Shown in pieces: positions 40,615-58,361 of a DNA stretch of 64,000 nt. The stretch is from an uncultured bacterium. GTDB taxonomy: Bacteria > Oederibacteriota > Oederibacteriia > Oederibacteriales > Oederibacteriaceae. The notes beneath the pieces are model-generated. The model saw nothing but the letters and a program-made list of their open reading frames with translations. It was not told the DNA's origin and did no database searches. The stretch spans positions 800,001 to 864,000 of the forward strand of contig OZ218778.1 of the NCBI GenBank assembly GCA_965112635.1. The letters run 5' to 3'. Made by a program: the position numbers and the translations under genes. Each line of letters begins with the position of its first letter. Positions within the stretch are counted from its first letter, which is position 1.

Positions 40615-41856
40615 TTGATACAAAAACATAAACTCTTCAGGGTCTATTTTTATATACTGGTCCTGCCTCTGTTCATCCATTTTATCCCTTATTTCAGCAG
40701 CTTTTTCTATAGAAGCCCCGCGCTATCCCTTATCTTATCCGTGATTCCCTGGATAGGGCTGGCCATCTTGGGGTTTATGGGGCTCAAGCTCAACCAGAGC
40801 CGGTTTTTCCTGTCCTCCCTGATCCTGCTGGCCAGCTATTTTGCCCTGACCAACCCCGGCCTTTTCCTATGGATGAAGCTTGGACCCGGAGAGGTGCGCA
40901 ACATCCTCGGCGTCGCCTTGCCCCTGTCGCTGACCTTTGTTTTCCTCCTCAAGGAAAGCCCTTTAAGGGGAAGCCCGGGTCTGTTGCGGGCCTTGTTCAT
41001 CCTGGGTCCCTTCGCGGTCCTGGGAGGGATGTTCTTCCTTTATCAGGAGGCCTACCTGAAGATCATGGAGTTCAATTTTTATGTTTTGAAAGACCTCATC
41101 AAGTTCCCGCACGCCGCCCTTATTTCCATTTTTATTTTTGGCTTCACGGCTTTTTCCTTGAAGGACAAAAAAGTGAATCTTTTCGTGGAGGCTCTGTTCC
41201 TGGCGCAGCTCCCGGTCTATTTCATCCTGGCCCTGGACGCGGGACCGGGAGCGCCCAAGCCTCTTTTGGGGCTTTGCTGGACCGCGGTCTGCGGGGTGCT
41301 GTTGCACGCCATGTTCACGCTCTACTGGCAGAGGGTGTACCTGGACGAACTGACCGGTGTCCCCAACCGAAGGGCCCTGGAAGAACACCTGGTCCATCTG
41401 CCCGAGAAATATGTCCTGGCCATGATCGATATTGACCATTTCAAGAATTTCAACGACCTCTACGGGCATGACCAGGGCGACCATGTCCTCAGACTGGTGG
41501 CGCGGCATCTGGCCAAAGAACTGGACAACAAAGCCTACCGCTACGGCGGGGAAGAGTTCTGCGCGCTCCTGCCGGACAGTTCCATGGCAGAGGCCGACCG
41601 TATGGCGGAAAAGGCGCGTGCCCGGCTGGAGAGAAGGATCTTCCACATCCGGCCCTCCAGGGAGAATAAAGCGGAGGCCGGAGAGGACGCGGGCAAGAAT
41701 TCAGCGGCCCGGCACCAGGTCAAGATCACGGTCAGCATGGGTTTGGCCAGCCCCGATAAAAACCACAAGACACCCCTGGAAGTTTTGAGCTGGGCGGACC
41801 AGGCCTTGTACCAAGCCAAAGCAGACGGCAGGAACTGCGTCCGGGTGGCCTCGTAA
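40615..41856 (+). CDS. Polytopic membrane diguanylate cyclase (GGDEF)
   Basis: About 8 TM helices, then DELTG..NRR, DIDHFK..ND.YGH..GD, RYGGEEF, ADQALY.AK..GRN; no RxxD I-site. Confidence 0.92.
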   Translation: MIQKHKLFRVYFYILVLPLFIHFIPYFSSFFYRSPALSLILSVIPWIGLAILGFMGLKLNQSRFFLSSLILLASYFALTNPGLFLWMKLGPGEVRNILGVALPLSLTFVFLLKESPLRGSPGLLRALFILGPFAVLGGMFFLYQEAYLKIMEFNFYVLKDLIKFPHAALISIFIFGFTAFSLKDKKVNLFVEALFLAQLPVYFILALDAGPGAPKPLLGLCWTAVCGVLLHAMFTLYWQRVYLDELTGVPNRRALEEHLVHLPEKYVLAMIDIDHFKNFNDLYGHDQGDHVLRLVARHLAKELDNKAYRYGGEEFCALLPDSSMAEADRMAEKARARLERRIFHIRPSRENKAEAGEDAGKNSAARHQVKITVSMGLASPDKNHKTPLEVLSWADQALYQAKADGRNCVRVAS

Positions 41857-43080: not shown

Positions 43081-44172
43081 ATGAATAAAATGAGCCGCCA
43101 GAAAAATCCTCATCATACCAACCCGATTTTTTCCAAAGAGATGTATTTCATCTTTGTCATCGCTTTTGTCGTCTTTTCCCTGCTCATCCCAGACTACCGC
43201 CAATCCTTCCTGATCTGCGCCCTGTTCTGCGGGCTGGCTTTTCTGTGGACCCAGCACCGCGGTTCCGTGATCATGACGAAGGTGCAGGAGTTCGATGAAG
43301 AGATCCAGCGGCCCCGCAGCGCAGCCGAGGGAGAACTGTTCCAAAAAGTCAGGGCGATCATCGTCAATTTCCAGAAAAATCCCAGACTGATCGCGCATTC
43401 TATTTTTTCCGCGGAGATGTGGTTCTTTCTGCTCAGTGTTTTTGTGATCTTTGCCATTTTGGCCCCACCTTTCCGCCAGGTCTTTCTTATCTGCGCCTTA
43501 TTGAGCGGGGCGGGATTTCTCTGGGTGGACCGGCGAGCCCTGAAGGTCATGGGCAGGGTGGAGGAGTTCACAAAAGAGATCCGAACGCTCGGTTTTTTTG
43601 AGGACGGAAAGCTTTTTGAAGAAGCCAAGGAACGGTACCAGACCCTGCTGGGCAAGTACAGGAACATTCCCGAGTTCTCCTGGATCATCAAGGTCAGTTT
43701 GCAGCGTTTGGAGACGGGCTATCAAGAGAAGTTGCAGAAGACGCGGATGAAACAGGAAGAGGTCATCGCACGCCAGTCCGCCGTAGAAAAAGAAAAAATC
43801 GACAGCGCCAAGAGCTTCGGGTTCGACGAGAAGAAAGACCGCCGCCGTCACCCCCGGTATCCCGTAGCCCTCACGGTCGGTTCGATCACTTCCATGAGCG
43901 AACCCGGGCAGAGCTATGAAGGCCAGGTCAAAAATCTCAGCCTCAGCGGAGCCCTCATTGAAAGTTTGCGTGAATTCAATTCCGGCGATACCGTCATGAT
44001 TTCGGGCATCCCTCTTCCTGAAAATGGGGAGTTGAAGGATATTTTTGCCAGGGTCGTCCGGGTAGCCGGTCCGGTCAGCCATCTAGCAGGATTAGAGTTC
44101 CTCTATATGACCGACCATGACGTGAGCACCATCGATTGTTTCCTCAAAAAGAGCAATACCCAGCCAGAATAA
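43081..44172 (+). CDS. Membrane protein with a duplicated TM hairpin and C-terminal PilZ domain
   Basis: DRRRHPR (RxxxR) and NLSLSG (D/NxSxxG) PilZ motifs; two similar N-terminal TM units. Confidence 0.82.
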   Translation: MNKMSRQKNPHHTNPIFSKEMYFIFVIAFVVFSLLIPDYRQSFLICALFCGLAFLWTQHRGSVIMTKVQEFDEEIQRPRSAAEGELFQKVRAIIVNFQKNPRLIAHSIFSAEMWFFLLSVFVIFAILAPPFRQVFLICALLSGAGFLWVDRRALKVMGRVEEFTKEIRTLGFFEDGKLFEEAKERYQTLLGKYRNIPEFSWIIKVSLQRLETGYQEKLQKTRMKQEEVIARQSAVEKEKIDSAKSFGFDEKKDRRRHPRYPVALTVGSITSMSEPGQSYEGQVKNLSLSGALIESLREFNSGDTVMISGIPLPENGELKDIFARVVRVAGPVSHLAGLEFLYMTDHDVSTIDCFLKKSNTQPE

Positions 44173-44196: not shown

Positions 44197-45540
44197 ATGA
44201 AAAGAAGCTTTTACGGATTGCTGATGGTCATGATGGCAGGATGTATCGCGACCGCGGAGGCCGAAATCGCGGTCACGGTCTATAACCAGAACCTGGGAGT
44301 GGTCAGGGAGGTCAGGCCTTTTGAGTTGAGCGAAGGGGTCCACAACCTGCTCTTCAAAGAGGTCGCGGCCCAGATAGACCCCACCTCCGTGAGCCTTACC
44401 GGTCCGGAGGGTTTCAAAGTGCTTGAACAGAACTATGATTTTGACTTGGTCTCTTCCGATAAACTCCTGGGGAAATACCTAGGCAAAAAGCTTTCCCTTG
44501 TGGACAAAAGCGGGAAAACCTTTGAAGGGCCGCTGCTTTCTTTTGACGGGGGCCAGATCGTCCTGGGGACCGAAGGCGGCGGAGCGAAGATGCTTTCCCG
44601 TCCTGAAATGGTTCAGATGGATTTTCCGTCCCTGCCGGGCGGGCTGATCACCGAACCTACTTTGGCCTGGATGGTCCGTTCGCCGGTCAGCGGGACCAAG
44701 GACCTGACCCTGACCTATATGACCGGCGGGATCAACTGGCATTGTGAATACGTGGCTTTAGTGGCACCGGACGAGAAAAACCTGGACCTGACCGGATGGG
44801 TTTCCGTGGATAACCAATGCGGGGCCAGTTTCAAGGAAGCCAAGCTGAAACTCGTGGCCGGCGAGGTGCACCGGGCCGAACCTAACGAAAAGGTCAGAAT
44901 TATGGAGCTTGCCGTTGCTGCCGCTCCGGCCCAAGACCAGGCTTTCCAGGAGAAGTCCTTTTTTGAATACCATTTGTACACCCTTAACCGGCCGGTGGAC
45001 CTGGCCAATGACCAGATCAAACAGGTAGAGCTTTTGAAGGCCGCCAGCGCGGCGGTCCGCAAAGTCTATACCTATGACGCGAGCGTGGACGCCAAAAAAG
45101 TCAAAGTGGAGCTGGAGCTCAAGAACAGCAAGGCGTCGGGGATGGGGTTGCCTCTGCCGGCCGGGAAAATGAGGGTCTATAAGGCCGACACGGACAAAAG
45201 CCTGGAATTCATCGGCGAGGACAGCGTGGACCACACGCCGGTGGACGAGAAGCTCCGGGTGGAGATGGGGAACTCCTTTGATATCATCGGAGAGCACCTG
45301 CAGCTCAAGCAGACCAAGGTCCGCGACAGGGTTTGGGATACTGAAGTAGAGATCAAGTTACGCAACCACCGCAAGGAGACCGCTCAGGTGGTGGCTGTGG
45401 AGCATGCCTGGGGAGACTGGGAGATCACCGCGAAGTCACAGGAGTACTATAAAAAGGACGCCAACACCTTTGAATTTTATCTGGATATTCCCGCGGACAA
45501 AGAAGCGGTCGTGACCTACACCGTCCGGATGGTGCGTTAA
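44197..45540 (+). CDS. DUF4139-domain exported protein
   Basis: Signal peptide, VTVYNQNLGVVRE, LEQNYDFDL, EYHLYTL, LGLPLPAG.RVY-like, FIGED..DHTP. Confidence 0.8.
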   Translation: MKRSFYGLLMVMMAGCIATAEAEIAVTVYNQNLGVVREVRPFELSEGVHNLLFKEVAAQIDPTSVSLTGPEGFKVLEQNYDFDLVSSDKLLGKYLGKKLSLVDKSGKTFEGPLLSFDGGQIVLGTEGGGAKMLSRPEMVQMDFPSLPGGLITEPTLAWMVRSPVSGTKDLTLTYMTGGINWHCEYVALVAPDEKNLDLTGWVSVDNQCGASFKEAKLKLVAGEVHRAEPNEKVRIMELAVAAAPAQDQAFQEKSFFEYHLYTLNRPVDLANDQIKQVELLKAASAAVRKVYTYDASVDAKKVKVELELKNSKASGMGLPLPAGKMRVYKADTDKSLEFIGEDSVDHTPVDEKLRVEMGNSFDIIGEHLQLKQTKVRDRVWDTEVEIKLRNHRKETAQVVAVEHAWGDWEITAKSQEYYKKDANTFEFYLDIPADKEAVVTYTVRMVR

Positions 45541-45561
45541 GGCTGGTCAACCCGCTAAAAC

Positions 45562-46227
45562 CTACTGTTCATCCTTGTGATGCCGGATATCCTTGCCCTT
45601 GACCATAAAGATGACGTCCTCGGCCACATTGGTCGCGTGGTCGCTGATCCTCTCCAAATTGCGGGAGATGAGGATCAGGTCCAGGGACTGGTGGATGATG
45701 CTGGGATCATGCTGCATGATCTTTAACAGCTGGTCGAAGGTCTGCGCCTTGAGCTTGTCCTCTTCGTCGTCCATTTGCAGGACCTGGCGGGCCAGGGCTT
45801 CGTCCTTGTTGACATAGGCATCCAGGCTTTTCTTGACCATGGCCATGGCCACTTCGGCCATTTTAGGGATGTCAAAAAGCTTTTGCCTGAGCTGGGGCTG
45901 GTCCAGGAGGATCAGGGAGGTCTGGGAAACATTGACCGCCAGGTCGCCCATGCGCTCCAGGTCGGAAATGATCTTCATGGCCGAAGCGATGAAGCGAAGG
46001 TCCACGGCTGCCGGCTGATACAACGCCAGAAGCTTGATGCAATGCTCATCGATGTTCAGCTGCAAGACGTTGACCTGCTGTTCGCGGTTGGCGACCTCTT
46101 TGGCCAGATCGGCCTTGCGTTCCTCCAGCTCCTTGACCGCCAGGTGGATCATTTCCTCCACCAGGCCGCCCATCAGGAGGACCTGTTCTTTGATGACTTT
46201 CAGCTCCTCATCCAAGTGGCGTTCCAT
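45562..46227 (-). CDS. phoU: Phosphate signalling protein PhoU (copy 2)
   Basis: QP.AVDLR, DLERMGD, NLERISDHATNVAE. Confidence 0.95.
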   Translation of the reverse strand: MERHLDEELKVIKEQVLLMGGLVEEMIHLAVKELEERKADLAKEVANREQQVNVLQLNIDEHCIKLLALYQPAAVDLRFIASAMKIISDLERMGDLAVNVSQTSLILLDQPQLRQKLFDIPKMAEVAMAMVKKSLDAYVNKDEALARQVLQMDDEEDKLKAQTFDQLLKIMQHDPSIIHQSLDLILISRNLERISDHATNVAEDVIFMVKGKDIRHHKDEQ

Positions 46228-46248
46228 TGATTCTCCCTTCTTGTCTTT

Positions 46249-47028
46249 TTACCCAAAACGGCCGGTCAAATAATTTTCCGTGCGCTGGTCCTTTGGGTTA
46301 GTAAATATTTCCGAGGTCACGCCGTATTCGATCAAGTCCCCCAAGAGAAAGAACGCCGTGAAATCCGAAATCCTACCGGCCTGCTGCATGTTGTGCGTTA
46401 CGAGGACTATCGTATAGTTTTTTTTCAAATTTTGAAAGAGTTGTTCGATCTTGAGGGTAGAAATCGGGTCCAGGGCCGAACAGGGCTCATCCATGAGCAA
46501 AACCTCGGGTTCCACGGCCAAAAGGCGTGAAATGCAGAGCCGCTGCTGGGATTCCAACGGCAGGGAAAGGGCCGGACGGTGCAGTATATCCTTAACCTGC
46601 TCGAAAAGATCGGTGGCGGCAAGGCTTTTTTCCACGAGTTCATGGAGTTTTTTGCCTCTGGCCATGTCGTGGATCCTGGGGCCGTAAGCCACGTTCTCGT
46701 AGATGGACAGGGGGAAAGGGTTGGGCCGTTGGAAGACCATGCCCATCCGTTTCCTCAGGTCGCGCTTGTCCAGGGAGTAAATATTGGTGTTCTCCAAAAG
46801 GATCTCGCCGGTCAGGTGAAAGCCGGGGATTTTGTCGTTCATGCGGTTGAGGCAGCGGATAAAGGTGGACTTGCCGCAGCCGGACGGCCCGATGATGGCC
46901 GTAATAGCCCGCTCGGTGATCCCCATGGACACACTTTTCAAGGCAGGGAATGAGACATAATTAACGCTGAGATTTTTGGACTCCAGCTTGAAAGCCAGAG
47001 CGGTTTTAACCGAACTTGCCAGAGACAT
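46249..47028 (-). CDS. pstB: Phosphate ABC transporter ATPase PstB with degenerate signature motif
   Basis: [34 protein letters not shown] intact; LSGGQ replaced by LPLES; ends TGRFG. Confidence 0.9.
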
Positions 47029-47776
47029 AGTCCTCCGTCCTTTTATCCTTGGGCGCCGTGAAAAGTTCTCCGGTCGGGCCATATTCCACCAGCTGGCCCA
47101 TCAATAGAAAAGCCGTATTGTCGGAGACCCGGGCGGCCTGTTTGACGTAGTTCGTGACCAGGATGATAGTGTATTCCTTTTTCAATTCCTGCAGGGCTTC
47201 CTCGATCTTGGCGGTGGAGATCGGGTCCAGGCCCGAGGAGGGCTCGTCGAGCAGAAGGAGTTTGGGACGCAGGGCCAGGATGCGGCTCAAGCACAGTCTC
47301 TGCTGCTGCCCGCCGGAAAGGTTGGAGGCGGGATCCTGCAGCCTGTCCTTGACCTCGTCCCAGAGGTAGGCGGCTTGGAGGGACTGTTCCACGCGGTTCT
47401 CGATCTCCTTCCGGCTCATGCCGTCCTTGAACAAGAGACCCAGGGCGATGTTGTTGAAGATGGTGCCGGGCAAGGTAATGGGTGAGGCGAAAACCATGCC
47501 GGCTTGGGCGCGGAGTTCGTAGAGGTCCACCTCCGGAGCGTTGATATCTTGGCCATCCATAAAGATCTGACCGGTCATTTTAAAACCCGGGGTGATGTCG
47601 TTAAGACGGTTGAGGCAGCGCAGGAAGGTGGTCTTGCCGCTCCGGGCCGGGCCGATCATTCCAAATATTTTATTACGGGGGATCTCCAGGGACAGGTCTT
47701 CTACGGCTTGTTCGCCATGGAACCAGACATTCAGATTTTTGACCTCGATGACGGCATTGCTTTCCATGGCGCTCAT
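47006..47776 (-). CDS. pstB: Phosphate ABC transporter ATPase PstB with degenerate Q-loop and H-switch
   Basis: [14 protein letters not shown] (Q to A), LSGGQQQRL intact, LDEP, VTNYVKQ (H to N); ends SGKFG. Confidence 0.9.
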
Positions 47777-48684
47777 CTCCTAAACCTCAATTTGGCCCTG
47801 AGCTTGCCGCGGGCCAGGATGGCAAAGAAATTCAAAGTAAAGGTCAGGGTCAACAGCACGAGCACGGTACCGAATAGGATGGGCTTGGTGGCTTCGACAT
47901 CCGGGGACTGCGTGGCCATGACATAGATGGAGTAACCCAATTCCATGAACTGGTCGTTGAGTTTGTGAGGGAGATAGGGGAGATAATAGGCCACCCCGGT
48001 AAAAAGTTCCGGGGCCACCTCACCGGAGCCACGGCTGATGGCCAGGATGGCGCCGGTCAAAATCCCCGCGACCGCGTTGGGCAGGACCACCTGCCGGATG
48101 ACCTGGAACCGGGTGGCGCCCACCGCGTAGGCCGCTTCGCGGAAGGCGTCGGGGACGGCCCGCAAGGATTCCTCGGTCGTCACGATGACCGTGGGCAAGG
48201 TCAAGAACGCCATGGTCAGGGCCGACCAGATGATAGCGGGCTGCCCGAAGTGCAGGGTGCCGCCGAAGAAAAGTTTGTCTATGCCGACCCCGCAGAAGTG
48301 GATCAAAAATCCCAGGCCGAACAGGCCGAACACGATGGAGGGGACCCCGGCCAGGTTTTGCACGGCCATGCGGACGATCTTGACGTAAAAAGAGTCCTGG
48401 CGGGCGTATTCGTGCAGGTAAACCGCGGTGGCTACGCCCAAGGGCACGACGGCGATGGTCATGAGGATGACCAGGGAAATGGTCCCAAAAATGGCAGGGA
48501 ATATGCCGCCCCGCGTCATCCCGGCCTCAGGGGCCTTGGTCAAGAAGCCCCAGGAAATCACGTCTTTACCGTTGTAAATGATAATTCCCAGGATGACTGT
48601 CACCATGGCGATGATGATAAGAGCGCACAACCCGGTCAGGGCCGAGAAGGTGAGACCGCTCAAACGGGTCAGCCAGCGCTTCAT
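47773..48684 (-). CDS. pstA: Phosphate ABC transporter permease PstA (copy 2)
   Basis: GGIFPAIFGT, AVYLHEY, NLAGVPSIVFGLFG, REAAYAVGAT, GEVAP. Confidence 0.94.
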   Translation of the reverse strand: MKRWLTRLSGLTFSALTGLCALIIIAMVTVILGIIIYNGKDVISWGFLTKAPEAGMTRGGIFPAIFGTISLVILMTIAVVPLGVATAVYLHEYARQDSFYVKIVRMAVQNLAGVPSIVFGLFGLGFLIHFCGVGIDKLFFGGTLHFGQPAIIWSALTMAFLTLPTVIVTTEESLRAVPDAFREAAYAVGATRFQVIRQVVLPNAVAGILTGAILAISRGSGEVAPELFTGVAYYLPYLPHKLNDQFMELGYSIYVMATQSPDVEATKPILFGTVLVLLTLTFTLNFFAILARGKLRAKLRFRR

Positions 48685-48760
48685 CGAACACCTCTGTAAA
48701 AAATTTTTATGATGCGTTCCCGCTCAGGGGTGTTCGTGTCCAAAAGCTTTTTGGACAGTT

Positions 48761-49738
48761 TCATTTAGAGCCTCCCGTGAGTTTGCGCCGCAGGCGATTG
48801 ACGAACCATTGGCCGGCCAGGTTGGTCAAGAAAGTGAAGATGAACAGGAACAACCCTATGAAGAAAAGGACGTGATAGTGGGAACTGCCCCGGACCACTT
48901 CGGCCAGTTCCGCGGCGATGGTGGCGGACAGGGTCCTCACGGACTGTGTAAAATCAAGGGAAACCAGGGCCGCGTTGCCCGAAGCCATCAGGACGATCAT
49001 GGTCTCGCCGATGGCCCGGCCGAACCCCAGGACGCAGGCGGCGAACACGCCGGGAAAAGCCGCGGGCAGGATGACCCGCCAGGCGGTCTGCCAGCGGGTG
49101 GCGCCCAGGGCGTCGGAGCCTTCGCGGAAACGCGTGGGCACGGCCGACAGGGCATCCTCGGTCACGGTATAGATAATAGGAATGACGGCCAGGCCTACGC
49201 CGATCCCGGCGGTGATGGCGTTGAGGCGGAAGGTCCAATGGATCATCTGCTCCAGCCAGGAAGCTAAGACCATGAGGGCGAAAAATCCCATGACCACCGA
49301 AGGGATACCGGCCAAAAGTTCAATGGCGGGTTTCATGACCTGCAAGAGCCAGGGCGGGGCAAACTCGGAGGTGAAAAGGGCGGCGCCCAGGGCCAAAGGC
49401 ACGGCGAGCAAAAGGGCCACGGCCGTGATCTTGAGCGTGCCCGCCAGCAGGGGGATCAGGGAATATTTGGGAATCTCAGAGGTGGGGATCCAAAGGAATT
49501 TGTGGGCTTGGGAATAGTTAAGGTCCTGTGGGACGTTGGGCAGAAAGAGCTTACCCAGGTCAGCTTCCTGTCTCACCTCGGGAGAAGTGAAAATCGGCAA
49601 GGCTTCCTTGCCGATAAAGATAAAGATCAGCAGCAGGGTGGCGATCACGCCAAAGGCGCTGGCGCGGATCAGAAACTCAAAGAAGTTTTCTTTCCACCGG
49701 TTCTTTTTTAAAATGAAAGACCTTACTTTAGCGTCCAA
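48761..49738 (-). CDS. pstC: Phosphate ABC transporter permease PstC (copy 2)
   Basis: ELLAGIPSVVMG, ALGATRWQT, GRAIGETM; likely TTG start at 49738. Confidence 0.93.
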   Translation of the reverse strand: MDAKVRSFILKKNRWKENFFEFLIRASAFGVIATLLLIFIFIGKEALPIFTSPEVRQEADLGKLFLPNVPQDLNYSQAHKFLWIPTSEIPKYSLIPLLAGTLKITAVALLLAVPLALGAALFTSEFAPPWLLQVMKPAIELLAGIPSVVMGFFALMVLASWLEQMIHWTFRLNAITAGIGVGLAVIPIIYTVTEDALSAVPTRFREGSDALGATRWQTAWRVILPAAFPGVFAACVLGFGRAIGETMIVLMASGNAALVSLDFTQSVRTLSATIAAELAEVVRGSSHYHVLFFIGLFLFIFTFLTNLAGQWFVNRLRRKLTGGSK

Positions 49739-49743
49739 GGGAA

Positions 49744-50586
49744 CTATTTCCCCGATCTTTTCAGCGGATAATAACCGACCTTTTGACAGACCTCCTGGCC
49801 CTGTTTGCCCGCGACCCAATCAATGAATTTCTTGGCGCTGGGAGAAGGCTGGCCGACCGTGTAAAAATAGAGGTAACGGCTAAGGGGATACTTTCTGCTC
49901 ATCACGTTCTTCATGGTCGGCTCCAGGGCTTTGCCAGTAGGCTCTTTGCTGATCTTCAGCACCTTGACCCCTTTGTTATAGCCGATGCCGCCGTAACCGA
50001 TGGCCTTTTCATCCTTGGAAACCGCGTTGACAATGGCGGCGGTGCCCGGCAAGGACTGGACCTCGGGAGCGAAATCCTTTTTGTCCAGCACATGCTCCTG
50101 GAAAAAAACATAGGTCCCGGAGTTGTTTTCCCGGCCGTAGGGCACGATGACCATATCCGCGCCCCCGACCTCTTTCCAGTTGTGGACCTGGCCCATAAAG
50201 ATCTTTTGGAGCTGGGGGAAGGAAAGCTGGTTCACCTTGTTGGAACTGTACACGTAGATACCGATGCCGTCCAAGGCCACAGGGATTTCCACGGCGGCTT
50301 TGCCCTGTTTTTCTTTTATTTCTCCCGATTCTTTGGGGCTGATGGGACGGGAGGCCATGCAGATATCCGTAGAGCCCGTGATCAAAGCGGAAATCCCGGT
50401 CCCTGACCCGCCGCCGGTGACTTGGACCACTTCGCCTGGATTGGTTTTCATATACTCCTCAGCCCATCGCTGGACCAGGATGATCATCGTGTCCGAGCCT
50501 TTGATGGTCAGGCTGCTCCCGGCCCAAAGGAGAACCGGTGTAAAGATTAATGACACAAGAAGAACGACGAGCAATTTTTTCATCAT
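49744..50586 (-). CDS. pstS: Phosphate-binding protein PstS (short GSDT/GGGSG type)
   Basis: Signal peptide, KGSDT, GGGSGTG, MASR, GRENNSGT, YPLSRYLY. Confidence 0.92.
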   Translation of the reverse strand: MMKKLLVVLLVSLIFTPVLLWAGSSLTIKGSDTMIILVQRWAEEYMKTNPGEVVQVTGGGSGTGISALITGSTDICMASRPISPKESGEIKEKQGKAAVEIPVALDGIGIYVYSSNKVNQLSFPQLQKIFMGQVHNWKEVGGADMVIVPYGRENNSGTYVFFQEHVLDKKDFAPEVQSLPGTAAIVNAVSKDEKAIGYGGIGYNKGVKVLKISKEPTGKALEPTMKNVMSRKYPLSRYLYFYTVGQPSPSAKKFIDWVAGKQGQEVCQKVGYYPLKRSGK

Positions 50587-50655
50587 TAAATCCTCCTTAA
50601 TATTTGGTATTCGCCTTGGCTGACAGGGATATTACAGAGGTTTTCCTCGGAGGGG

Positions 50656-50696
50656 TATGGTTGGTTTGTAATTTATTTGTGACATGTTTGTGACAA
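50656..50696 (-). promoter_or_regulatory. Pho-box-like array (TGTCAC type)
   Basis: Minus-strand hexamers GTCACA, GTCACA, ATTACA, ACCATA at exact 11-bp period (plus-strand starts 50689, 50678, 50667, 50656) upstream of pstS. Confidence 0.72.
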
Positions 50697-50724
50697 AGCA
50701 AGAGGAGATCGCAGCAAAACAAGG

Positions 50725-50762
50725 AAAAAACCCTGTTGGGAGCCAACTCCAACAGGGTTTTT
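50725..50762 (-). terminator. Intrinsic terminator between the two pst operons
   Basis: AAAAACCCTGTTGG-9 nt-CCAACAGGGTTTTT immediately after the phoU stop. Confidence 0.8.
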
Positions 50763-50764
50763 GA

Positions 50765-51433
50765 TCAGCCCTTTGCTTCGCGGGTGTGGCGGATATCTTC
50801 ACCGGAGACCATGTAAATCACATCTTCGGCAATATTGGTCGCATGGTCGCCGATACGCTCCAAATTTCTGGAGATAAGGATCATTTCCAGGGCCTGGGGT
50901 ATGCAGGAGGTTTCCTTGGTCATGAGCTTGAGCATTTCATCAAATATTTCGGCCTTGAGCTCATCCTCCCGGTCGTCATTTTCGAGGATTCGGCGGGCCA
51001 GTTCCACATCATGATTGACATAGGCGTCCAGGCTGTCTTTAAGCATGGCCAGAGTATGCTGGGTCATCACGGAGATGTTGGACAATTTTTCCCGCAGCTG
51101 GGGCTGCTCCAGCATGATGAGCGAAGTCTGCGATATGTTGACGGCCTGGTCGCCGATGCGTTCCAGGTCAGAGATGATCTTCATCGCGACCGTGATGAAC
51201 CGCAGGTCCACTGCCTCGGGCTGGAACAGCGCCAGCAAACGAATGCAGTTCTCGTCCGTTTCTTTATGAAGCTGGTTCACTTCCTTCTCGCAGGTGGCCA
51301 CTTCCTGGGCAAGGTCTGGTTTTCTTTCCATAAGTTCCTTGAGGGCCAGGTGGATCATCTGCTCGACCATACCGCCCATATACAAGACCCGGTTCTTGAT
51401 GATCTTCAGTTCTTCATCAAAGCGCCTTTCCAT
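50765..51433 (-). CDS. phoU: Phosphate signalling protein PhoU (copy 1)
   Basis: QPEAVDLR, DLERIGD, NLERIGDHATNIAE. Confidence 0.95.
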   Translation of the reverse strand: MERRFDEELKIIKNRVLYMGGMVEQMIHLALKELMERKPDLAQEVATCEKEVNQLHKETDENCIRLLALFQPEAVDLRFITVAMKIISDLERIGDQAVNISQTSLIMLEQPQLREKLSNISVMTQHTLAMLKDSLDAYVNHDVELARRILENDDREDELKAEIFDEMLKLMTKETSCIPQALEMILISRNLERIGDHATNIAEDVIYMVSGEDIRHTREAKG

Positions 51434-51473
51434 AGAGCTCCTTCCTTTTTGTTAAATTGGCTTGCTTGCTGGG

Positions 51474-52376
51474 CTATCCAAACCTGCCGGTGATATAAGC
51501 TTCGGTGCGTTTGTCCTGGGGAGTGGTGAACAGAATATCTGTCTTGTCAAATTCAATGAGCTGACCCATGAGCATAAAACCGGTCTTGTTGGAGACCCGG
51601 GCGGCCTGCTGCATGTTATGGGTGACGATGACGATGGTGTAGTTGGTCCGCAGTTCGTGCAGCAACTCTTCGATCTTTCCGGTCGAGATAGGGTCCAGGG
51701 CGGAGCAAGGCTCATCCATCAGGATCACTTCAGGTTCGATAGCCAGGGCCCGGGCCACGCAGAGGCGCTGCTGCTGGCCTCCGGAAAGGGCCAGCCCCGG
51801 CTTATTAAGAATATCTTTCACTTCTTCCCAAAGGGCCGCTTTGCGCAGACTTTGCTCCACGACGTCGTCGAGCTTTTTGTCCGAGGCCAGGCCGTTCAAG
51901 CGCAGTCCCACCGCGACATTTTCATAGATGGACATCGTGGGAAATGGGCTCGGCTTTTGGAAGACCATGCCGATACGGCGGCGGACCGTTACAGGGTCCA
52001 CGGATGCCCCAAAAATGCTTTTGCCGTCAAAGATGATGTCGCCTTTAAGGGTAGCGCCCGGGATGGTTTCGTGCATGCGGTTGATGCAGCGGATCAAGGT
52101 GGATTTGCCGCATCCGGAAGGGCCGATCAAGGCGGTGATCTCTCTTTCCCTAATATCCATATTTACAGAGAACAGGGCTTGTTTGGAACCGAACCAAGCG
52201 GATAGCCCGTCGATCTTAATTTTTATCTCCGCGGCCGGATTTTCCAGCTGTTCGCCTGTTTTTTCGACCGGTATTTTGACCGTTAATGTTTCCTTGGTAT
52301 TGTCCATAGGTCCTTCCTTTGGCAAGGCATTGAGGGGCTCCTTTGTCCCGACTTTATCGACCACATTGGTTTCCAT
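51474..52376 (-). CDS. pstB: Phosphate ABC transporter ATPase PstB (canonical)
   Basis: [40 protein letters not shown] all intact; start may be 52306. Confidence 0.95.
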
Positions 52377-52388
52377 ATTTTTCCTTTT

Positions 52389-53240
52389 CTAAGCGCGTAT
52401 GTATTTAGCTCTTTTGAAAATCGTCCGGGCAATAAGATTGATCGTTATAACGAGGATCAAAAGGACCAAAGCGCCGCTCCAAGCCTGGGCGTGCCATTCA
52501 TTAAATGGAGAGATGGCGTAAGAGTAAACCTGGACCGTCAGCGAGGCGGTTGGCTGCAAAGCGGAAGACCAGAACTGGTTGTTAAAAGCCGTGAACAACA
52601 GAGGGGCGGTTTCGCCGCCAACCCTGGCGATAGAAAGCAGAATACCGGTCAAGATGCCGCTCCAGGCTGTTCTTACCACCACACTAAGAATGACCTTCCA
52701 ACGGGGGACTCCCAGAGCCAGGGCCGATTCGCGGACCGAATTAGGGACCAGTTTGATGAGCTCTTCGGTAGTCCTGGCCATGATGGGCACCATCATAAAG
52801 CTAAGCGCCAAGCCGCCCGCAAGCCCGGAAAAATGCCCCAGAGTCCTGACCGCCCAGGCATAGGTGACGATGCCGGTCACGATGGAGGGGACCCCGGAAA
52901 GCACATTGGAGGTGAACCTGACCAGGAACGCAAAGCGGCTTTCTTTGCCGAATTCCGCCATATAGATACCGGACAATACGCCACAAGGGATGCCAATAAC
53001 ACTGGCAATGAACAGGATGGTCAGGGAACCTACTATGGCGTTGGCCATCCCGCCTCCCGGGGTTCCGACCGGCACAGGCAAATGGGTGATAAAGGCCCAG
53101 TCCAAGCGGCCCCATCCCTGGATGACGATGTAGGTGATCAGGCTGGCTAGGGGCAAAAGGACTATCACGCAGGCCAGGCCGCAGAGAAAAACCATCAGGC
53201 GGTCCAGCAATCTCCGGCGTGCCGCTAAATTGGAGTTCAT
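52389..53240 (-). CDS. pstA: Phosphate ABC transporter permease PstA (copy 1)
   Basis: GGGMANAIVGS, LSGVPSIV, RESALALG, GETAPLLFT. Confidence 0.94.
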   Translation of the reverse strand: MNSNLAARRRLLDRLMVFLCGLACVIVLLPLASLITYIVIQGWGRLDWAFITHLPVPVGTPGGGMANAIVGSLTILFIASVIGIPCGVLSGIYMAEFGKESRFAFLVRFTSNVLSGVPSIVTGIVTYAWAVRTLGHFSGLAGGLALSFMMVPIMARTTEELIKLVPNSVRESALALGVPRWKVILSVVVRTAWSGILTGILLSIARVGGETAPLLFTAFNNQFWSSALQPTASLTVQVYSYAISPFNEWHAQAWSGALVLLILVITINLIARTIFKRAKYIRA

Positions 53241-54250
53241 GCGGCCCCCTTTGCGGATTGTTGAAATTGCCGGGAGGTCAGCCAGATTAGCATATGAGCG
53301 GCGACGTTCAAAATAAGCGTGATGACCATCAGAAGCAGGCCGATCTCGATAAGAGAGGAAAGATAAAGATTACCGGTGGCTTCGCTGAACTCATTGGCGA
53401 TAACGCTGGCCATACTATGGGCCGGGGCCAGCAGGTTGGGGGAAACCTGGGCTTTGTTGCCGATGACCATGGCGACCGCCATGGTCTCTCCCAGGGCCCG
53501 GCCAAGGGCTAGCATGATCGCTCCAAGCATCCCGGGTTTGGAAGGTTTTAAAACCGCGATCCTGATCATCTCCCAGCGGGTCGTCCCCAGAGCCAACGCG
53601 GATTCCCGCATGGTGTTGGGGACGGTTTCAAAAACCTCGCGTGAGATGGAAACGATAGTAGGCACGATCATGATGGCCAGGATAATGCCGGCTGTAAAAA
53701 GAGAAAGTCCGATAGCCGGTGCGGCAAAGAAGGGTTTGCCGATCCATTGGATAAGAAAAGGACTGACGTGGACCCGTAAAAAGGGCGCTAAAGCGAAAAT
53801 ACCCCACAGGCCATACACCACGCTGGGAATGGCGACCAGGGTTTCGACGAGAAAGGCCAGCGGCTGACGCAGGGGATAGGGCGACAATTCGGTCAGAAAA
53901 AGCGCCACGCAAAGCCCGAGCGGCACAGCCAAAAGAAGGGCCAAAAGAGAAGAGGCGACCGTACCATAAACATAAGGCAGAGCCCCGAAAAGCTCTTTGA
54001 CGGGGTCCCAAGCGGAGCTGAACAGAAAGCCAAAACCAAATTTTTGGACAGCCGGCCAGGCTGAAATGCAAAGCTGCACGGTCATGGCCAGGGCCAGGGC
54101 CAGGATCAAAAGGGCAAAAAAACCGGTGGCAAATCGAAAAATACGGTCCGCCAGGCCTTGTTTGTTGACCCATGAAACCAATGAAAAGAGCGGGAAGGGT
54201 TGTTCGCCCTTCCCGCCCTCTTTTTTTGACACCATTACAGAAGCACTCAC
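53237..54250 (-). CDS. pstC: Phosphate ABC transporter permease PstC (copy 1)
   Basis: WDPV...FGA, AIPSVVYGLWG, GRALGETMAV, IANEF. Confidence 0.94.
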   Translation of the reverse strand: MSASVMVSKKEGGKGEQPFPLFSLVSWVNKQGLADRIFRFATGFFALLILALALAMTVQLCISAWPAVQKFGFGFLFSSAWDPVKELFGALPYVYGTVASSLLALLLAVPLGLCVALFLTELSPYPLRQPLAFLVETLVAIPSVVYGLWGIFALAPFLRVHVSPFLIQWIGKPFFAAPAIGLSLFTAGIILAIMIVPTIVSISREVFETVPNTMRESALALGTTRWEMIRIAVLKPSKPGMLGAIMLALGRALGETMAVAMVIGNKAQVSPNLLAPAHSMASVIANEFSEATGNLYLSSLIEIGLLLMVITLILNVAAHMLIWLTSRQFQQSAKGAA

Positions 54251-54275
54251 CCTTCGTTCCTTTTAAAACAAGGTC

Positions 54276-55310
54276 TTAGTACTTGATCTCGGCTATCTTT
54301 GCTTTTACTTTGGCCACCAGAGAGTCGGGCAGGGGGGCATAATACAGATCTTTTTCCATGCTCATCCCCTTGTCCATAGCCCAGTTCAGATAGCTCACAA
54401 CCGCTTCGCCAATATTGTGGTCCGAGTACTTGGCATAGACCAAGATCCAGGTAAACCCGGCGATCGGGTAGGAATTCTGGCCCGGTGCGTTGGTGAACAT
54501 GATCTTAAAATTCGAGGGCATGTGCGCCAGGGCGCCTGCAGCCGCCTCCGTCACATTATCAATGGTCGCGTCCGGATAGTTGCCGGCACGGTTGCGGATA
54601 CGTGCGTAAGACAGCTTGTTCTGGAGCGCGTAGGCCAGTTCGATATAGCCCAGAGTCCCAGGGACCTGGGTGATGACCCCGGCCACCCCGTCATTACCTT
54701 TGCCGCCGACCCCGACCGGCCAGTTGACCGCGGTGCCATAACCCGCGGTAGAAGCCCATTTGGTGCTCACTTTGGTCAGGTAGTTGGTGAAAATATTGGT
54801 CGTTCCGCTGCCGTCAGAGCGATGGGCCACGTTGATGGCCATATCCGGGAGGTTCATGCCCGGATTAAGGCTCACGAGGGCTTCATCGTTCCATTTGGTG
54901 ATGTTGCCGAGGAAAATATCGGCCAGCACTTTGGGGGTCATCTTGATGCCATCCGCAACTCCCGGCAGGTTGTAGGCCAGGACCACGGCGCCCATAGCTG
55001 CAGGAAGGTGGAATACCGCTTCCCCAACGGCTTTTTCCTGTTCGTCAGTCATATAGGCATCGGTCCCCGCGAAGTTGACGGTGTGGTTGGTCAATTGCTG
55101 GATACCGCCTCCGGAACCAATGGCCTGGTAGTTGATCTGCACACTGGTGTCTTTGTTGTACTCATAACCCCACTTTTGATAGAGGGGAGCAGGAAAAGTA
55201 GCTCCCGCCCCATTGAGCGACACTCCCGCGAAACCCAGGGAGCAGGTCACGATCACGGCCGTGAGGCCCAGGGCTACACCTGCCGCGCCTTTCTTGATTA
55301 AGTTCAACAT
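54276..55310 (-). CDS. pstS: Phosphate-binding protein PstS (classical GAGATFP type)
   Basis: GAGATFP, GSGGG, FAGTD, HRSDGSGTT, GKGNDGV, YPI. Confidence 0.95.
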   Translation of the reverse strand: MLNLIKKGAAGVALGLTAVIVTCSLGFAGVSLNGAGATFPAPLYQKWGYEYNKDTSVQINYQAIGSGGGIQQLTNHTVNFAGTDAYMTDEQEKAVGEAVFHLPAAMGAVVLAYNLPGVADGIKMTPKVLADIFLGNITKWNDEALVSLNPGMNLPDMAINVAHRSDGSGTTNIFTNYLTKVSTKWASTAGYGTAVNWPVGVGGKGNDGVAGVITQVPGTLGYIELAYALQNKLSYARIRNRAGNYPDATIDNVTEAAAGALAHMPSNFKIMFTNAPGQNSYPIAGFTWILVYAKYSDHNIGEAVVSYLNWAMDKGMSMEKDLYYAPLPDSLVAKVKAKIAEIKY

Positions 55311-55344
55311 TTTTTCAATCCTCCGATTTGATCAAATTTTTTAA

Positions 55345-56907
55345 CTAGAAGCGATAACGGGTGCCGATGGTATAGAGCGAAGTCTGGCTGATACCGCTTG
55401 TGGCGAACATACCGGCTGCTGTGGAGCTGCCAGCGCTGACTTTGCTGACACCCGCCGAAGTGGTTCCCGTGGAACCGGCCACCGAGCCGCCATCCAGGGC
55501 GCCAGAGAGGTTGCTGTAGCCATAGCAGATATATATATCGCTTTTTTTGCTGAGGTAATAATCAGCAGTGAATAAATAGGTATCACGCACTCCGGAGTCA
55601 CCCTCGTTGATGACATTGCCGGCGAAATCGTTGTAGTAGGAGCAGATGAACTCCCATTCCGTGACCGGTATATATTTGATGGAAGCGTTGATGACCTGGT
55701 CAAAACGATCCTGGGCCGGTGCAGAGGTCTCAGAGTTGGCATTAGCAATGGTGTCTCCGGTGTTAGTGCTGGCGCTACTGGTCACAGCAGCGTAGGATGA
55801 ACCCGGGACCATCTGATCGCCGGTGATGTTCATAAAACCACGGTCAAAGTTGGACTGCATATAGAAACCGTAGAGCTGGATCATGGCGGGCTGAGAGCCG
55901 AGGAGCTGGCCTTTCTGGTCCAGCAGGTTGCATACCATGGCTCCGGCTTCATCATAGTGGTTATGCATGGCGCCGTCATTCTCGTTCTGGAAAGCCGCCA
56001 CGAGTTTGGTCTGCATGGGGTCGCAGTTGTAAGTCAGGCTGGCCGCATACATGCAGTTCCCGTTCAGGTCGCCCGCGGGATTGCCGAACGCGTAATCAGC
56101 GCCGACGATGAACCCGAACCAGTTGCTGCTGATATATTTGACCGACTCATCCCAGCGCAGTCCCGAATAGTTCAGGAAAAAGGTGTTTTCCTCACCATTG
56201 GTGCCGCCGTAGTTGCCCGCTGTATTGCCGCTGCCGGTGGGTTTGAATAAGACCAAGTTGCCGTGGTTGACACCGAACACGTCGCCGAGCCCGATGGCGT
56301 CAGCAAGAGTCCCGTAGGTGCGGCCCATGGTGAGCTGACCCAGGACTGTGTTGTCCAGGCCTACCCAGGCTTGACGGCCGAATAGCTGGCCCTGCTGATC
56401 AATGGCGCCGGTGCCGGGATACAGACCGCCTTCAAGGGTGGCGATAGCTTTGGTGCCATTGCCGACATTTTCCACTGCCCTAATACCCCAGCGGCTGCCT
56501 TGAAAAACGCCTTGTCCGATATCTGTCCTTATTTGGCCGGTCCCCGAATTGGTTATGTCACCACCCCCAACTGATACACCGCCTTTTCCATTGGCGTATG
56601 GATACCCCATGTTCGTGGATGAGGCCACGTTGGAGTCGATTACGCCGTAGATGGAAATACCTTTTAAAATATCTTCGGTGGCGCTTACCCTCTTGGTCAT
56701 ATCGCCAAGCGCCATGCCGACCTCTGCTTTATAGTCATCCAGGCTGGCCTGCAAGTCCGTGTCACTTGGCTTGGCCATATCCTGGGCTGAGACTGCCATC
56801 ACTGTGCCCATGGTCGCGAGCGCCACGAGCATCATCAGAAGCGCCAGGGTTCCTTTCTTGAGAATTTTTGAGGCTGAAGATTGAAACCATTTCTTTTTCT
56901 GACTCAT
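55345..56907 (-). CDS. Gram-negative porin-family protein heading pst operon 1
   Basis: Signal peptide, ISIYGVID, SRWGIR..E, LFGRQAWVGL, LTMGR, YYLSKKSDIY, C-terminal RYRF. Confidence 0.85.
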   Translation of the reverse strand: MSQKKKWFQSSASKILKKGTLALLMMLVALATMGTVMAVSAQDMAKPSDTDLQASLDDYKAEVGMALGDMTKRVSATEDILKGISIYGVIDSNVASSTNMGYPYANGKGGVSVGGGDITNSGTGQIRTDIGQGVFQGSRWGIRAVENVGNGTKAIATLEGGLYPGTGAIDQQGQLFGRQAWVGLDNTVLGQLTMGRTYGTLADAIGLGDVFGVNHGNLVLFKPTGSGNTAGNYGGTNGEENTFFLNYSGLRWDESVKYISSNWFGFIVGADYAFGNPAGDLNGNCMYAASLTYNCDPMQTKLVAAFQNENDGAMHNHYDEAGAMVCNLLDQKGQLLGSQPAMIQLYGFYMQSNFDRGFMNITGDQMVPGSSYAAVTSSASTNTGDTIANANSETSAPAQDRFDQVINASIKYIPVTEWEFICSYYNDFAGNVINEGDSGVRDTYLFTADYYLSKKSDIYICYGYSNLSGALDGGSVAGSTGTTSAGVSKVSAGSSTAAGMFATSGISQTSLYTIGTRYRF

Positions 56908-56953
56908 TGTTTCCCTCCTTGGTTAAAATTTTGCTGTAAGGTTATCTCCAGAC

Positions 56954-56992
56954 AGTTAGGTTTTTGTTAGAGAACGGTTAAATGCTTGTAAA
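56954..56992 (-). promoter_or_regulatory. Pho-box-like array (TTAACA/CTAAC type)
   Basis: Minus-strand hexamers TTTACA, TTAACC, CTAACA, CTAACT at exact 11-bp period (plus-strand starts 56987, 56976, 56965, 56954) upstream of porin-pstS. Confidence 0.7.
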
Positions 56993-57006
56993 CAAAAACT
57001 GATCTT

Positions 57007-58038
57007 TTATTCTGCTTTTTCCTCCTTTCCATCGTTGGTGTCCAGATAAGAGGCCGCAAATCCCTCGATACGGTTTTTTCCCTGTTTTTTTGCCTGATAT
57101 AAACGCTGGTCCGCTTCCTGGAATATCTGTTTGGCGTGGGTATGGGAGGGAAGCCATTTGCTGACCCCTCCGGAAAGCGTCAGGGAATAAATACTGCCGT
57201 TGACGACAAAAACGGCTTTTTCAATCTCTCTACGGATCAATTCCCCCAAAATATAGGCTTTACGGAGACCGCAGTCGGGGAGGAGCACCAAGAATTCATC
57301 CCCTCCATAGCGCACCGGAATGTCCGCGTGCCTCACGTGTTTTTGGATCAGCTTACCCACTTTAAGGAGAGCTTCGTCGCCCGCAGAGTGGCCGTAAAGG
57401 TCGTTGATCTTTTTAAAATCGTCAATATCCAGGAGCAGGAGAGACATGTTCCCGCCGTATTGCCGGATCTTGACGAATTCGGTTTCCAGGGCCTGGTCAA
57501 AAATGTGACGGGTAAAAAGACCGGTCAGGGAGTCGACCTCGGCGATCTTCGTGGCCTCGGCCAGCTTGGTCTGTTCTCTCAGAAGCTGGCTCCTAGAAGC
57601 CTCTAAAATGTCCGTCTGGCTAATCAGTCCCGCAAGTTCCTGCTGAGGACTGACGACAAGTAAATAACGGACATTTTCGCCTCTGATCCTGTCAAAAGCC
57701 GTATGAATGCTTTCCTGAGGTTGTATGGTGGCGGCTTTTTCGAGGATATTTTGGAGGGGTATCTCATGATCCAGCATCACCGCCATGCATTTGATCAGAA
57801 GCTGGTCTGTGATCACCCCCAGAAGAGCGGAGCCTTCGACCACAGGCAGGCAGCCGATGCGGTATTGCATCATCAAACGAAGCGCGTCGACGATCCTGTC
57901 ATGGGGAGAAACCGTGATAACAGTCCGCGTCATGTAAAAGCCGATAGTTTCTTCTTCTATCATTATGGGCGTCAAAGGTGCGTGTTCGGAGGGCTTTATT
58001 CCTATGGGTAATTCCTTTGGTTTTGTAATGGTATTCAT
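57007..58038 (-). CDS. CBS-domain diguanylate cyclase
   Basis: CBS pair (MTRTVITVSP...GCLPVV...GVIT; LLVV...GLISQTDIL), DSLTGL, RHAD I-site, RYGGDEF; likely ATG start at 58038. Confidence 0.9.
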   Translation of the reverse strand: MNTITKPKELPIGIKPSEHAPLTPIMIEEETIGFYMTRTVITVSPHDRIVDALRLMMQYRIGCLPVVEGSALLGVITDQLLIKCMAVMLDHEIPLQNILEKAATIQPQESIHTAFDRIRGENVRYLLVVSPQQELAGLISQTDILEASRSQLLREQTKLAEATKIAEVDSLTGLFTRHIFDQALETEFVKIRQYGGNMSLLLLDIDDFKKINDLYGHSAGDEALLKVGKLIQKHVRHADIPVRYGGDEFLVLLPDCGLRKAYILGELIRREIEKAVFVVNGSIYSLTLSGGVSKWLPSHTHAKQIFQEADQRLYQAKKQGKNRIEGFAASYLDTNDGKEEKAE

Positions 58039-58361
58039 ACTTTGTGGCCTTTCTTTCCAAGGTTCTGGAATCAATCTCTTCATTGCGCCAGGAAACATAC
58101 CGCCCGGAGGTTAGGAAGAGGCGAGAAATGGATTAGATTATTATTACTGGCAAGAAAACCACAGGCTGAAAGAGTAAGCCTGTGGCAGTTTATGTGGTAT
58201 TGGAGTTCTGAGGGGGAAAGAGTAAACTAATAGAAACACCTCCGCCCCAAGGGGCAGGGTATTTAAGTAAAGGAAAGGACCGTCACGCCCGCGGTGGAGC
58301 GGAACACCACTAGAGGATGAAAGAGAACTAAAATAAAAAATCAACTGACTGGAGCTGCAGA

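Follow-up and report, generated by a model that had tools for sequence, protein, structure and literature searches.

A tandem pair of PstB ATPases with complementary motif losses predicts an asymmetric phosphate importer in an uncultured Oederibacteriota bacterium

The window analysed here is a stretch of 64,000 nucleotides (positions 800,001 to 864,000 of contig OZ218778.1, assembly GCA_965112635.1) from the genome of an uncultured bacterium of the phylum Oederibacteriota. Open reading frame (ORF) listing together with NCBIfam searches showed that it carries two complete phosphate-transport operons in series on the minus strand, at 45562-55310 (Table 1). The operon pstS1-pstC1-pstA1-pstB1-phoU1 (50765..55310) is canonical and forms the context, outside the system that concerns us, while the second operon, pstS2-pstC2-pstA2-pstBa-pstBb-phoU2, holds two adjacent pstB genes, pstB-a and pstB-b. 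The genome, which is a single 2.88-Mb contig, has exactly three PstB genes, all of them in the window. Every gene of both operons passed its NCBIfam cut-off except pstB-a, whose best family by far is TIGR00972, at a score under the curated cut-off. We consider it likely, and with good confidence, that the second operon encodes a type I phosphate importer powered by an obligate PstB-a/PstB-b heterodimer with one consensus and one degenerate adenosine triphosphate (ATP) site.

The motifs of the two subunits were read from a three-way PstB alignment, in which PstB-a and PstB-b are 49% identical, and the codon coordinates were checked on the sequence. PstB-a has a phenylalanine at the A-loop position, the signature LSGGQQQ (47300-47320), the Walker B motif LLLLDEP and the D-loop SGLD; its Q-loop glutamine is replaced by alanine (VFA, Ala97, 47486-47494) and its H-switch histidine by asparagine (VTNY, Asn209, 47147-47158). 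PstB-b keeps all of its catalytic motifs (Walker A GPSGCGKST, Q-loop VFQ with Gln100, Walker B LLMDEP, D-loop SALD and H-switch VTHN with His212) and deviates in the signature alone, which reads LPLESQQ (46543-46563). Neither subunit therefore holds the full catalytic motif set by itself, PstB-a being without the Gln and His and PstB-b without SGG. These motifs, and the description of the third protein, PstB1, as canonical throughout, had been given by a sequence-only reading of the locus, and the ORF listing and the alignment confirmed them. That reading had also counted the PstB-a Walker A, GPARSGKTT (47627-47653), as a defect, which was not borne out: it still matches GxxxxGK[ST] and is therefore a family-specific variant.

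In E. coli PstB, ATP is held by Walker A and Walker B of one subunit and the LSGGQ signature of the other (PMC12976172). Set on this geometry, the motif states place all deviations in one composite site and leave the other with a consensus set, as the sequence-only reading had supposed. Site 1, to which PstB-b contributes Walker A, Q-loop, Walker B and H-switch and PstB-a contributes LSGGQQQ, would be the consensus site and would hydrolyse ATP. Site 2, composed of Walker A and Walker B from PstB-a and the signature of PstB-b, would have Ala for the Q-loop Gln and Asn for the H-switch His, and would face a signature with Glu in place of the second Gly.

The recurrence of this arrangement was examined in 189 fetched loci, comprising 80 from species genomes, 29 from genomes of the window's phylum and 80 from metagenomes; the species-genome loci were found with an a-type protein profile, whose scan patterns turned out to be generic. 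Here, subunits of the PstB-a kind are termed a-type and those of the PstB-b kind b-type. Every PstB ORF in the loci was found by hidden Markov model and its motif columns were then read. Tandem pairs were defined as pstB-pstB neighbours on the same strand with stops 650-1100 nucleotides apart, with the window's own loci excluded and the motifs not used for grouping, which gave 48 pairs (47 at 90% identity, 25 at 70%). Signature loss in one member indeed co-occurred with Q-loop and H-switch loss in the other: in 44/48 pairs the upstream subunit had a non-Gln Q-loop, a non-His H-switch and an SGG signature, and the downstream subunit had Gln, His and a non-SGG signature. Three further pairs, of a milder kind, combined an upstream non-Gln Q-loop in a subunit keeping its His with a downstream subunit having Gln, His and LSLGQQQ, and a single pair (L063) was canonical in both members. 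Altogether 47/48 tandem pairs were heterotypic with complementary defects, and the reversed gene order, b before a, was seen in none of the 48. The combination of Ala in the Q-loop and Asn in the H-switch was present in 40/48 upstream subunits, and the Walker A Lys and Walker B Glu were present in all 96 subunits. The full canonical motif set was found in 111 PstB ORFs of the fetched loci, 109 of which stand outside tandem pairs. The complementary pattern is thus far beyond chance, recurring in 44 of 48 independently fetched tandem pairs.

The association of the two subunit types was also counted from the side of the a-type gene, limited to those genes with at least 700 nucleotides of downstream DNA. 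A b-type partner adjoined the a-type gene in 6/6 cases in species genomes (one further gene was cut by the contig end) and in 12/12 cases in the window's phylum (three further genes were cut). A complete adjacent partner was present for 26/27 a-type genes in metagenomes, and in the 27th case (L141) the partner was a truncated ORF in which LSAEQQQ could still be read. Nine more metagenome a-type genes lie at contig ends, four of which show a Glu-containing signature in a partial partner. Tandem pairing is therefore obligatory wherever DNA was available. The gene order was pstS-pstC-pstA-a-b throughout, with phoU next where the fetched DNA shows one. No support was found for the sequence-only reading's suggestion of a degenerate site coupled to a dedicated PhoU, since the canonical operon has a phoU1 of its own and, in other genomes, operons of either kind are followed by PhoU.

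The substitutions are also conserved among the nearest relatives of each subunit, taken as the best 120 for each with the window's own protein counted, and with motifs read by pattern. Among the PstB-a relatives, the Q-loop was readable in 107/120 and held Ala in 106 and Leu in one, with Gln in none; the H-switch was readable in 118/120, with Asn in all 118, and the signature was likewise readable in 118/120, with SGGQ in all 118. Those relatives that are named belong to Planctomycetota, Ignavibacteria, Verrucomicrobiota, Kiritimatiellia, Omnitrophica, Elusimicrobia, Margulisiibacteriota and Desantisbacteria, and the public record gives them generic names only, such as 'phosphate ABC transporter ATP-binding protein'. 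The PstB-b relatives were divided: 50/120 had Glu or Asp at signature position 4, typically as LS[P/A/L]EQQQ with Q and H intact, and the remaining 70/120 kept both signature glycines. A profile search of 50%-identity representatives found the a-type in about ten representatives, and 117 of the 150 matches listed were canonical where readable.

Several proteins in these searches resembled fused PstB pairs. Two of them, P0400 (507 amino acids) and P0403 (508 amino acids), were rejected as true a-b fusions: in each, the a half runs out C-terminally into unrelated residues, and neither shares its cluster with another protein. They are probably products of frameshift read-through and were not counted as evidence. 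Two other apparent fusions, P0401 and P0402, have canonical motifs in both halves, with the D-loop ASLD in the first, and the long proteins from the representative search proved to be canonical PstB with N-terminal extensions.

Motif loss of this kind might be expected of decaying duplicates, in which case the operon would depend on whichever copy remains, or else on the canonical PstB. Such decay would be in keeping with the score of PstB-a, under the TIGR00972 cut-off, and with the LPLESQQ of PstB-b, the most divergent signature among those seen. Both reading frames are intact, however, and the ratio of nonsynonymous to synonymous substitution (dN/dS; Nei-Gojobori method, NG86, pairs at 80-99% amino-acid identity with synonymous divergence dS<2) was as low in both subunit types as in canonical pstB: the medians were 0.058 in the a-type (5 pairs, range 0.04-0.14), 0.066 in the b-type (4 pairs, 0.02-0.10) and 0.068 in canonical pstB (38 pairs, 0.03-0.28). 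Both members of the pair are thus under purifying selection. Furthermore, the substitutions are specific and fixed across many phyla, with Ala plus Asn in most upstream subunits, and neither the Walker A Lys nor the Walker B Glu varies anywhere in the tandem pairs. On the strength of dN/dS and motif conservation we rejected the decay of either gene, which we regard as extremely improbable.

A quick IQ-TREE tree of 57 PstB proteins, for which 33 of the 71 canonical rows were retained at random and the duplicate of the window locus was removed, grouped all 13 Q-loop-degenerate subunits in one clade, with a support of 100 in the Shimodaira-Hasegawa-like approximate likelihood ratio test (SH-aLRT) and of 99 without the 37 motif columns. 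The 11 signature-degenerate subunits also formed one clade, with an SH-aLRT support of 86 when the motif columns were included. The clade support with and without the motif columns indicates that the a-type subunits have a single origin and the b-type subunits one or two. The comparison covered 98 other genomes of the window's phylum, which share the phylum only and include no near relative, and an a-type gene was found in 16/99 genomes of the phylum (families f1, f3, f4, f11, f14 and f15). The lower-scoring single pstB matches of the phylum genomes were canonical in 14/14 loci read. A canonical pstB-phoU directly upstream of pstSCA-a-b-phoU also occurs in a candidate-division WOR-1 genome (L008), and in three genomes (G009, G016 and G022) a third pstB match lies, by position only, 4-5 kb from the pair.

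These data bear on whether the two subunits act together. They could instead work separately, as homodimers or with different partners, for example one in the transporter and the other in PhoU/PhoR signalling. Tandem pstB genes with distinct phenotypes do exist in Firmicutes (PMC12096839), and the canonical PstB of the same genome could power transport. An a/a dimer, however, would have two sites without Q and H, and in a b/b dimer both sites would face LPLESQQ, so that a consensus site would arise only in the mixed a/b dimer. The complementary defects of nearly all tandem pairs, together with the absence of any a-type gene without its partner where DNA was available, argue in the same direction, as does the overlap of the window's pstB genes by 23 nucleotides. 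The E. faecalis pair, in addition, has all motifs identical to those of canonical PstB (PMC12096839), unlike the window pair. We consider separate action of the two subunits quite improbable.

In the heterodimer that we favour, site 2 most likely binds nucleotide and hydrolyses it slowly or never. Binding is suggested because upstream subunits keep the Walker A Lys/Thr and the Walker B Asp-Glu (48/48), and 42/44 upstream subunits have an aromatic residue at the A-loop. By general ABC (ATP-binding cassette) enzymology, a site deprived of both its Q-loop Gln and its H-switch His should be crippled in hydrolysis. Each transport cycle would then consume about one ATP, and between cycles a nucleotide at site 2 could keep the PstB subunits in contact, as it does in heterodimeric exporters.

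Several points weigh against this interpretation. The catalytic Walker B Glu is kept in 48/48 upstream subunits, so residual hydrolysis at site 2 is possible; the textbook degenerate sites of TAP1, CFTR nucleotide-binding domain (NBD) 1 and TM287/288 usually replace this residue. The signature Glu of PstB-b might repel the gamma-phosphate of ATP, in which case site 2 would hold adenosine diphosphate (ADP), nothing or another ligand. Since PstB-a served as the bait and many of the loci are related, they are neither a random nor an independent sample, and the counts therefore show consistency, not frequency. When the motif columns are deleted from the tree, the b-type needs two changes and forms no robust single clade, although the strongly supported branches by themselves require no more than one change. 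Finally, separate roles are possible in principle by analogy with E. faecalis PstB1 and PstB2 (PMC12096839).

In a related explanation, the heterodimer forms and site 2 is not an ATP site at all, closing without a gamma-phosphate, for example through a Lys-Glu contact, or sensing ADP, phosphate or another ligand. A Glu replaces the second signature Gly in 44/48 downstream subunits, and Lys stands at H-switch+3 in 40/44 Asn-type upstream subunits; the milder kind has Gln at H-switch+3 in 20/20, and its partners keep the signature Gly. It is possible that the PstB-a Lys (Lys212), three residues after the Asn, contacts the PstB-b signature Glu (Glu159) across the interface. Comparison of a-type with other subunits, in groups partly defined by the motif states themselves, showed further positions fixed in the a-type: the D-loop Ala changed to Gly, a Phe changed to Leu in the Q-loop region facing the coupling helix, Gln changed to Lys at H-switch+3, and, within Walker A, a Cys replaced by Ser and a Ser replaced by Thr. 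These positions point to remodelling rather than loss, and the first two would fit a site that no longer binds ATP. On the other side, the conserved Walker A Lys/Thr, Walker B Asp-Glu and A-loop aromatic are hard to explain without nucleotide binding, and the co-occurrence of Lys and Glu may stem from a single ancestral event. We therefore regard a site 2 that is no ATP site as unlikely. A more specific and rather doubtful proposal is that site 2 could be a remodelled latch or sensor, in which the Lys-Glu pair would let the site close with ADP, empty or with another phosphate-bearing ligand, so that the importer's cycle, or else PhoU/PhoR signalling, would respond to the cell's energy or phosphate status for one ATP per phosphate.

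The milder pair kind was seen among the species-genome loci, 13/80 of which held Q-loop-degenerate subunits: eight of the Asn type and five that keep His after a Pro (VPH[S/N]), four of the five having an LSLGQQQ partner. Its first subunit has Ala, Asp or Thr in the Q-loop and the D-loop SGLD, and the partner has the signature L[S/T]LGQQQ. The two genes are in tandem in L006, L054 and L185; elsewhere the partner is divergent and upstream of pstS (L042 and L082) or upstream by some 2.5 kb (L161, L162, L166 and L191). Several metagenome loci of this kind showed no partner within the fetched DNA. In L156 and L163, a canonical-motif pstB (ISGGQQQ) is convergent with an LSLGQQQ-type pstB on the opposite strand, which is probably a canonical operon beside a milder-type operon continuing past the contig end. 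A single pstB in the pstC-pstA-pstB-phoU locus of a Bacillota metagenome-assembled genome (L011:1894-2655) has the Walker A Lys changed to Ile and the Walker B Glu to Arg, with Asp in the Q-loop and 'APH', and no second pstB was seen in 6.6 kb; this PstB may be fully inactive.

Gene ends overlap within the second operon (Table 1). The TGA stop of pstA2 overlaps the ATG of pstB-a as ATGA at 47773-47776, and the ATG of pstB-b lies within the last 23 nucleotides of pstB-a, which ends in a TAA stop at 47006-47008. The longest pstB-b ORF extends to 47082; the start is most likely the ATG at 47028 rather than that at 47082, because the purine-rich GGACGGAGGA at 47031-47040 precedes the former, which also agrees with the 259-residue database gene call P0121. 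The start of pstC2 is uncertain, since its longest ORF runs into the 3' end of pstS2. The overlaps of the gene ends suggest that pstA2, pstB-a and pstB-b are translationally coupled. A promoter and terminator scan of 45300-57200 returned sites no more numerous than in shuffled sequence.

Beyond the operons, a 520-residue ORF lies directly upstream of pstS1; by its place heading the pst operon it would suit an outer-membrane or accessory uptake protein. Cyclic di-GMP genes stand on both sides of the pst operons.

Table 1. Genes of the two pst operons of the window, the pstB-a/pstB-b junction and flanking genes.
Feature	Coordinates	Strand	Evidence
pstS2, phosphate-binding protein, second operon	49744..50586	-	TIGR02136, 239.1 bits (cut-off 206.6)
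pstC2, permease	48761..49819	-	TIGR02138, 247.9 bits (cut-off 196.45)
pstA2, permease	47773..48684	-	TIGR00974, 250.8 bits (cut-off 193.45)
pstB-a, degenerate Q-loop and H-switch, 256 residues	47006..47776	-	TIGR00972, 325.0 bits (cut-off 343.2)
pstB-a/pstB-b junction	47006..47040	-	sequence read
pstB-b, degenerate signature, 259 residues	46249..47028	-	TIGR00972, 354.9 bits (cut-off 343.2)
phoU2, final gene of second operon	45562..46227	-	TIGR02135, 215.2 bits (cut-off 130.25)
pstS1, neighbouring canonical operon	54276..55310	-	
pstC1, neighbouring canonical operon	53237..54250	-	
pstA1, neighbouring canonical operon	52389..53240	-	
pstB1, all motifs canonical	51474..52376	-	TIGR00972, 385.7 bits
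phoU1, neighbouring canonical operon	50765..51433	-	
520-residue ORF	55345..56907	-	no Pfam match at E<=1e-5
CBS-GGDEF protein gene	57007..58098	-	Pfam
PilZ-domain protein gene	43081..44172	+	Pfam
Membrane protein gene, C-terminus GGDEF-like by eye only	40615..41856	+	ORF translation

The asymmetric pair thus appears to be a conserved and widespread variant of the Pst importer that is apparently undescribed. Degenerate ATP sites have influenced how ABC exporters and CFTR are understood. Type I importers, by contrast, are treated as symmetric machines that spend two ATP per cycle, and a Pst system with one consensus site would offer a model among importers, bearing on the number of ATP used per transport cycle, the role of a non-hydrolysing site and the asymmetric docking of NBDs on the asymmetric PstC/PstA. 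The presence of the pair in many mostly uncultured phyla, often beside a canonical Pst, may point to divided roles or to an economy of energy in phosphate uptake. Since PstB-a falls under the curated cut-off and the record names are generic, dedicated subfamily models would improve annotation.

The sequence-only reading had also known of no earlier account of such asymmetry in a type I Pst importer; in agreement, a full-text literature search, with subscription journals mostly outside its coverage, turned up no paper on a PstB pair of degenerate or asymmetric type. Its only mentions of degenerate sites in importers concerned the fused NBDs of RbsA and NupO.

The closest relative by family is the E. 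coli PstSCAB transporter, with which the window system shares the operon logic of pstS, pstC, pstA and pstB with phoU. In E. coli, PstA and PstC each carry one PstB, and the solved PstB structures are homodimers (PDB 9k3x, 9k3y and 9k3s for E. coli; PMC12976172). E. coli thus has one pstB and two identical consensus sites, whereas the window has two diverged subunits. In the resting E. coli transporter, nothing but PstA and PstC holds the PstB subunits (PMC12976172), in contrast to the nucleotide-glued contact proposed for the window pair.

Two adjacent pstB genes within a pst operon are shared with the pstB1/pstB2 (pstBA/pstBB) of Firmicutes such as E. faecalis and B. subtilis. The B. subtilis PstBA and PstBB have been modelled as a heterodimer on PstCA (PMC11466899), and non-overlapping functions have been reported for E. 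faecalis PstB1 and PstB2, both of which are reported with canonical motifs (PMC12096839). The Firmicutes pairs therefore differ from the window pair in having no degenerate site. The L063 pair (L063:3108-4750), canonical in both members and with the D-loop ASLD in the first, resembles this Firmicutes arrangement and is distinct from the asymmetric pair.

Importers with one degenerate ATP site are represented by RbsA and NupO of the CUT2 type, for which one site is noted as degenerate (PMC11466899). Their NBDs differ from those of the window in being fused in one polypeptide, the second without its Walker A Lys, and they belong with another substrate and another transmembrane domain (TMD) family and are not PstB.

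The nearest functional parallel lies among the exporters, in which degenerate ATP sites have been described as frequent (PMC3971661; PMC7756269). As in TM287/288, TAP1/2, CFTR, BmrCD and PatAB, the deviations of the window pair are confined to one composite site and the other is consensus, and as in those systems the two different NBDs always occur together, in 47/48 heterotypic pairs and with the a-type always beside its partner where DNA was available. The architecture differs, the exporters having an exporter fold with fused TMD and NBD, while the window encodes a type I importer with free NBD subunits and with separate PstC and PstA permeases (TIGR02138 and TIGR00974) as its TMDs. The chemistry of the degenerate site differs as well: in exporter degenerate sites the Walker B Glu is usually substituted and the Q-loop intact, whereas the window pair keeps the Walker B Glu and loses the Q-loop Gln. 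By analogy, then, the window system would operate in the manner of the asymmetric exporters, though it lies outside their families.

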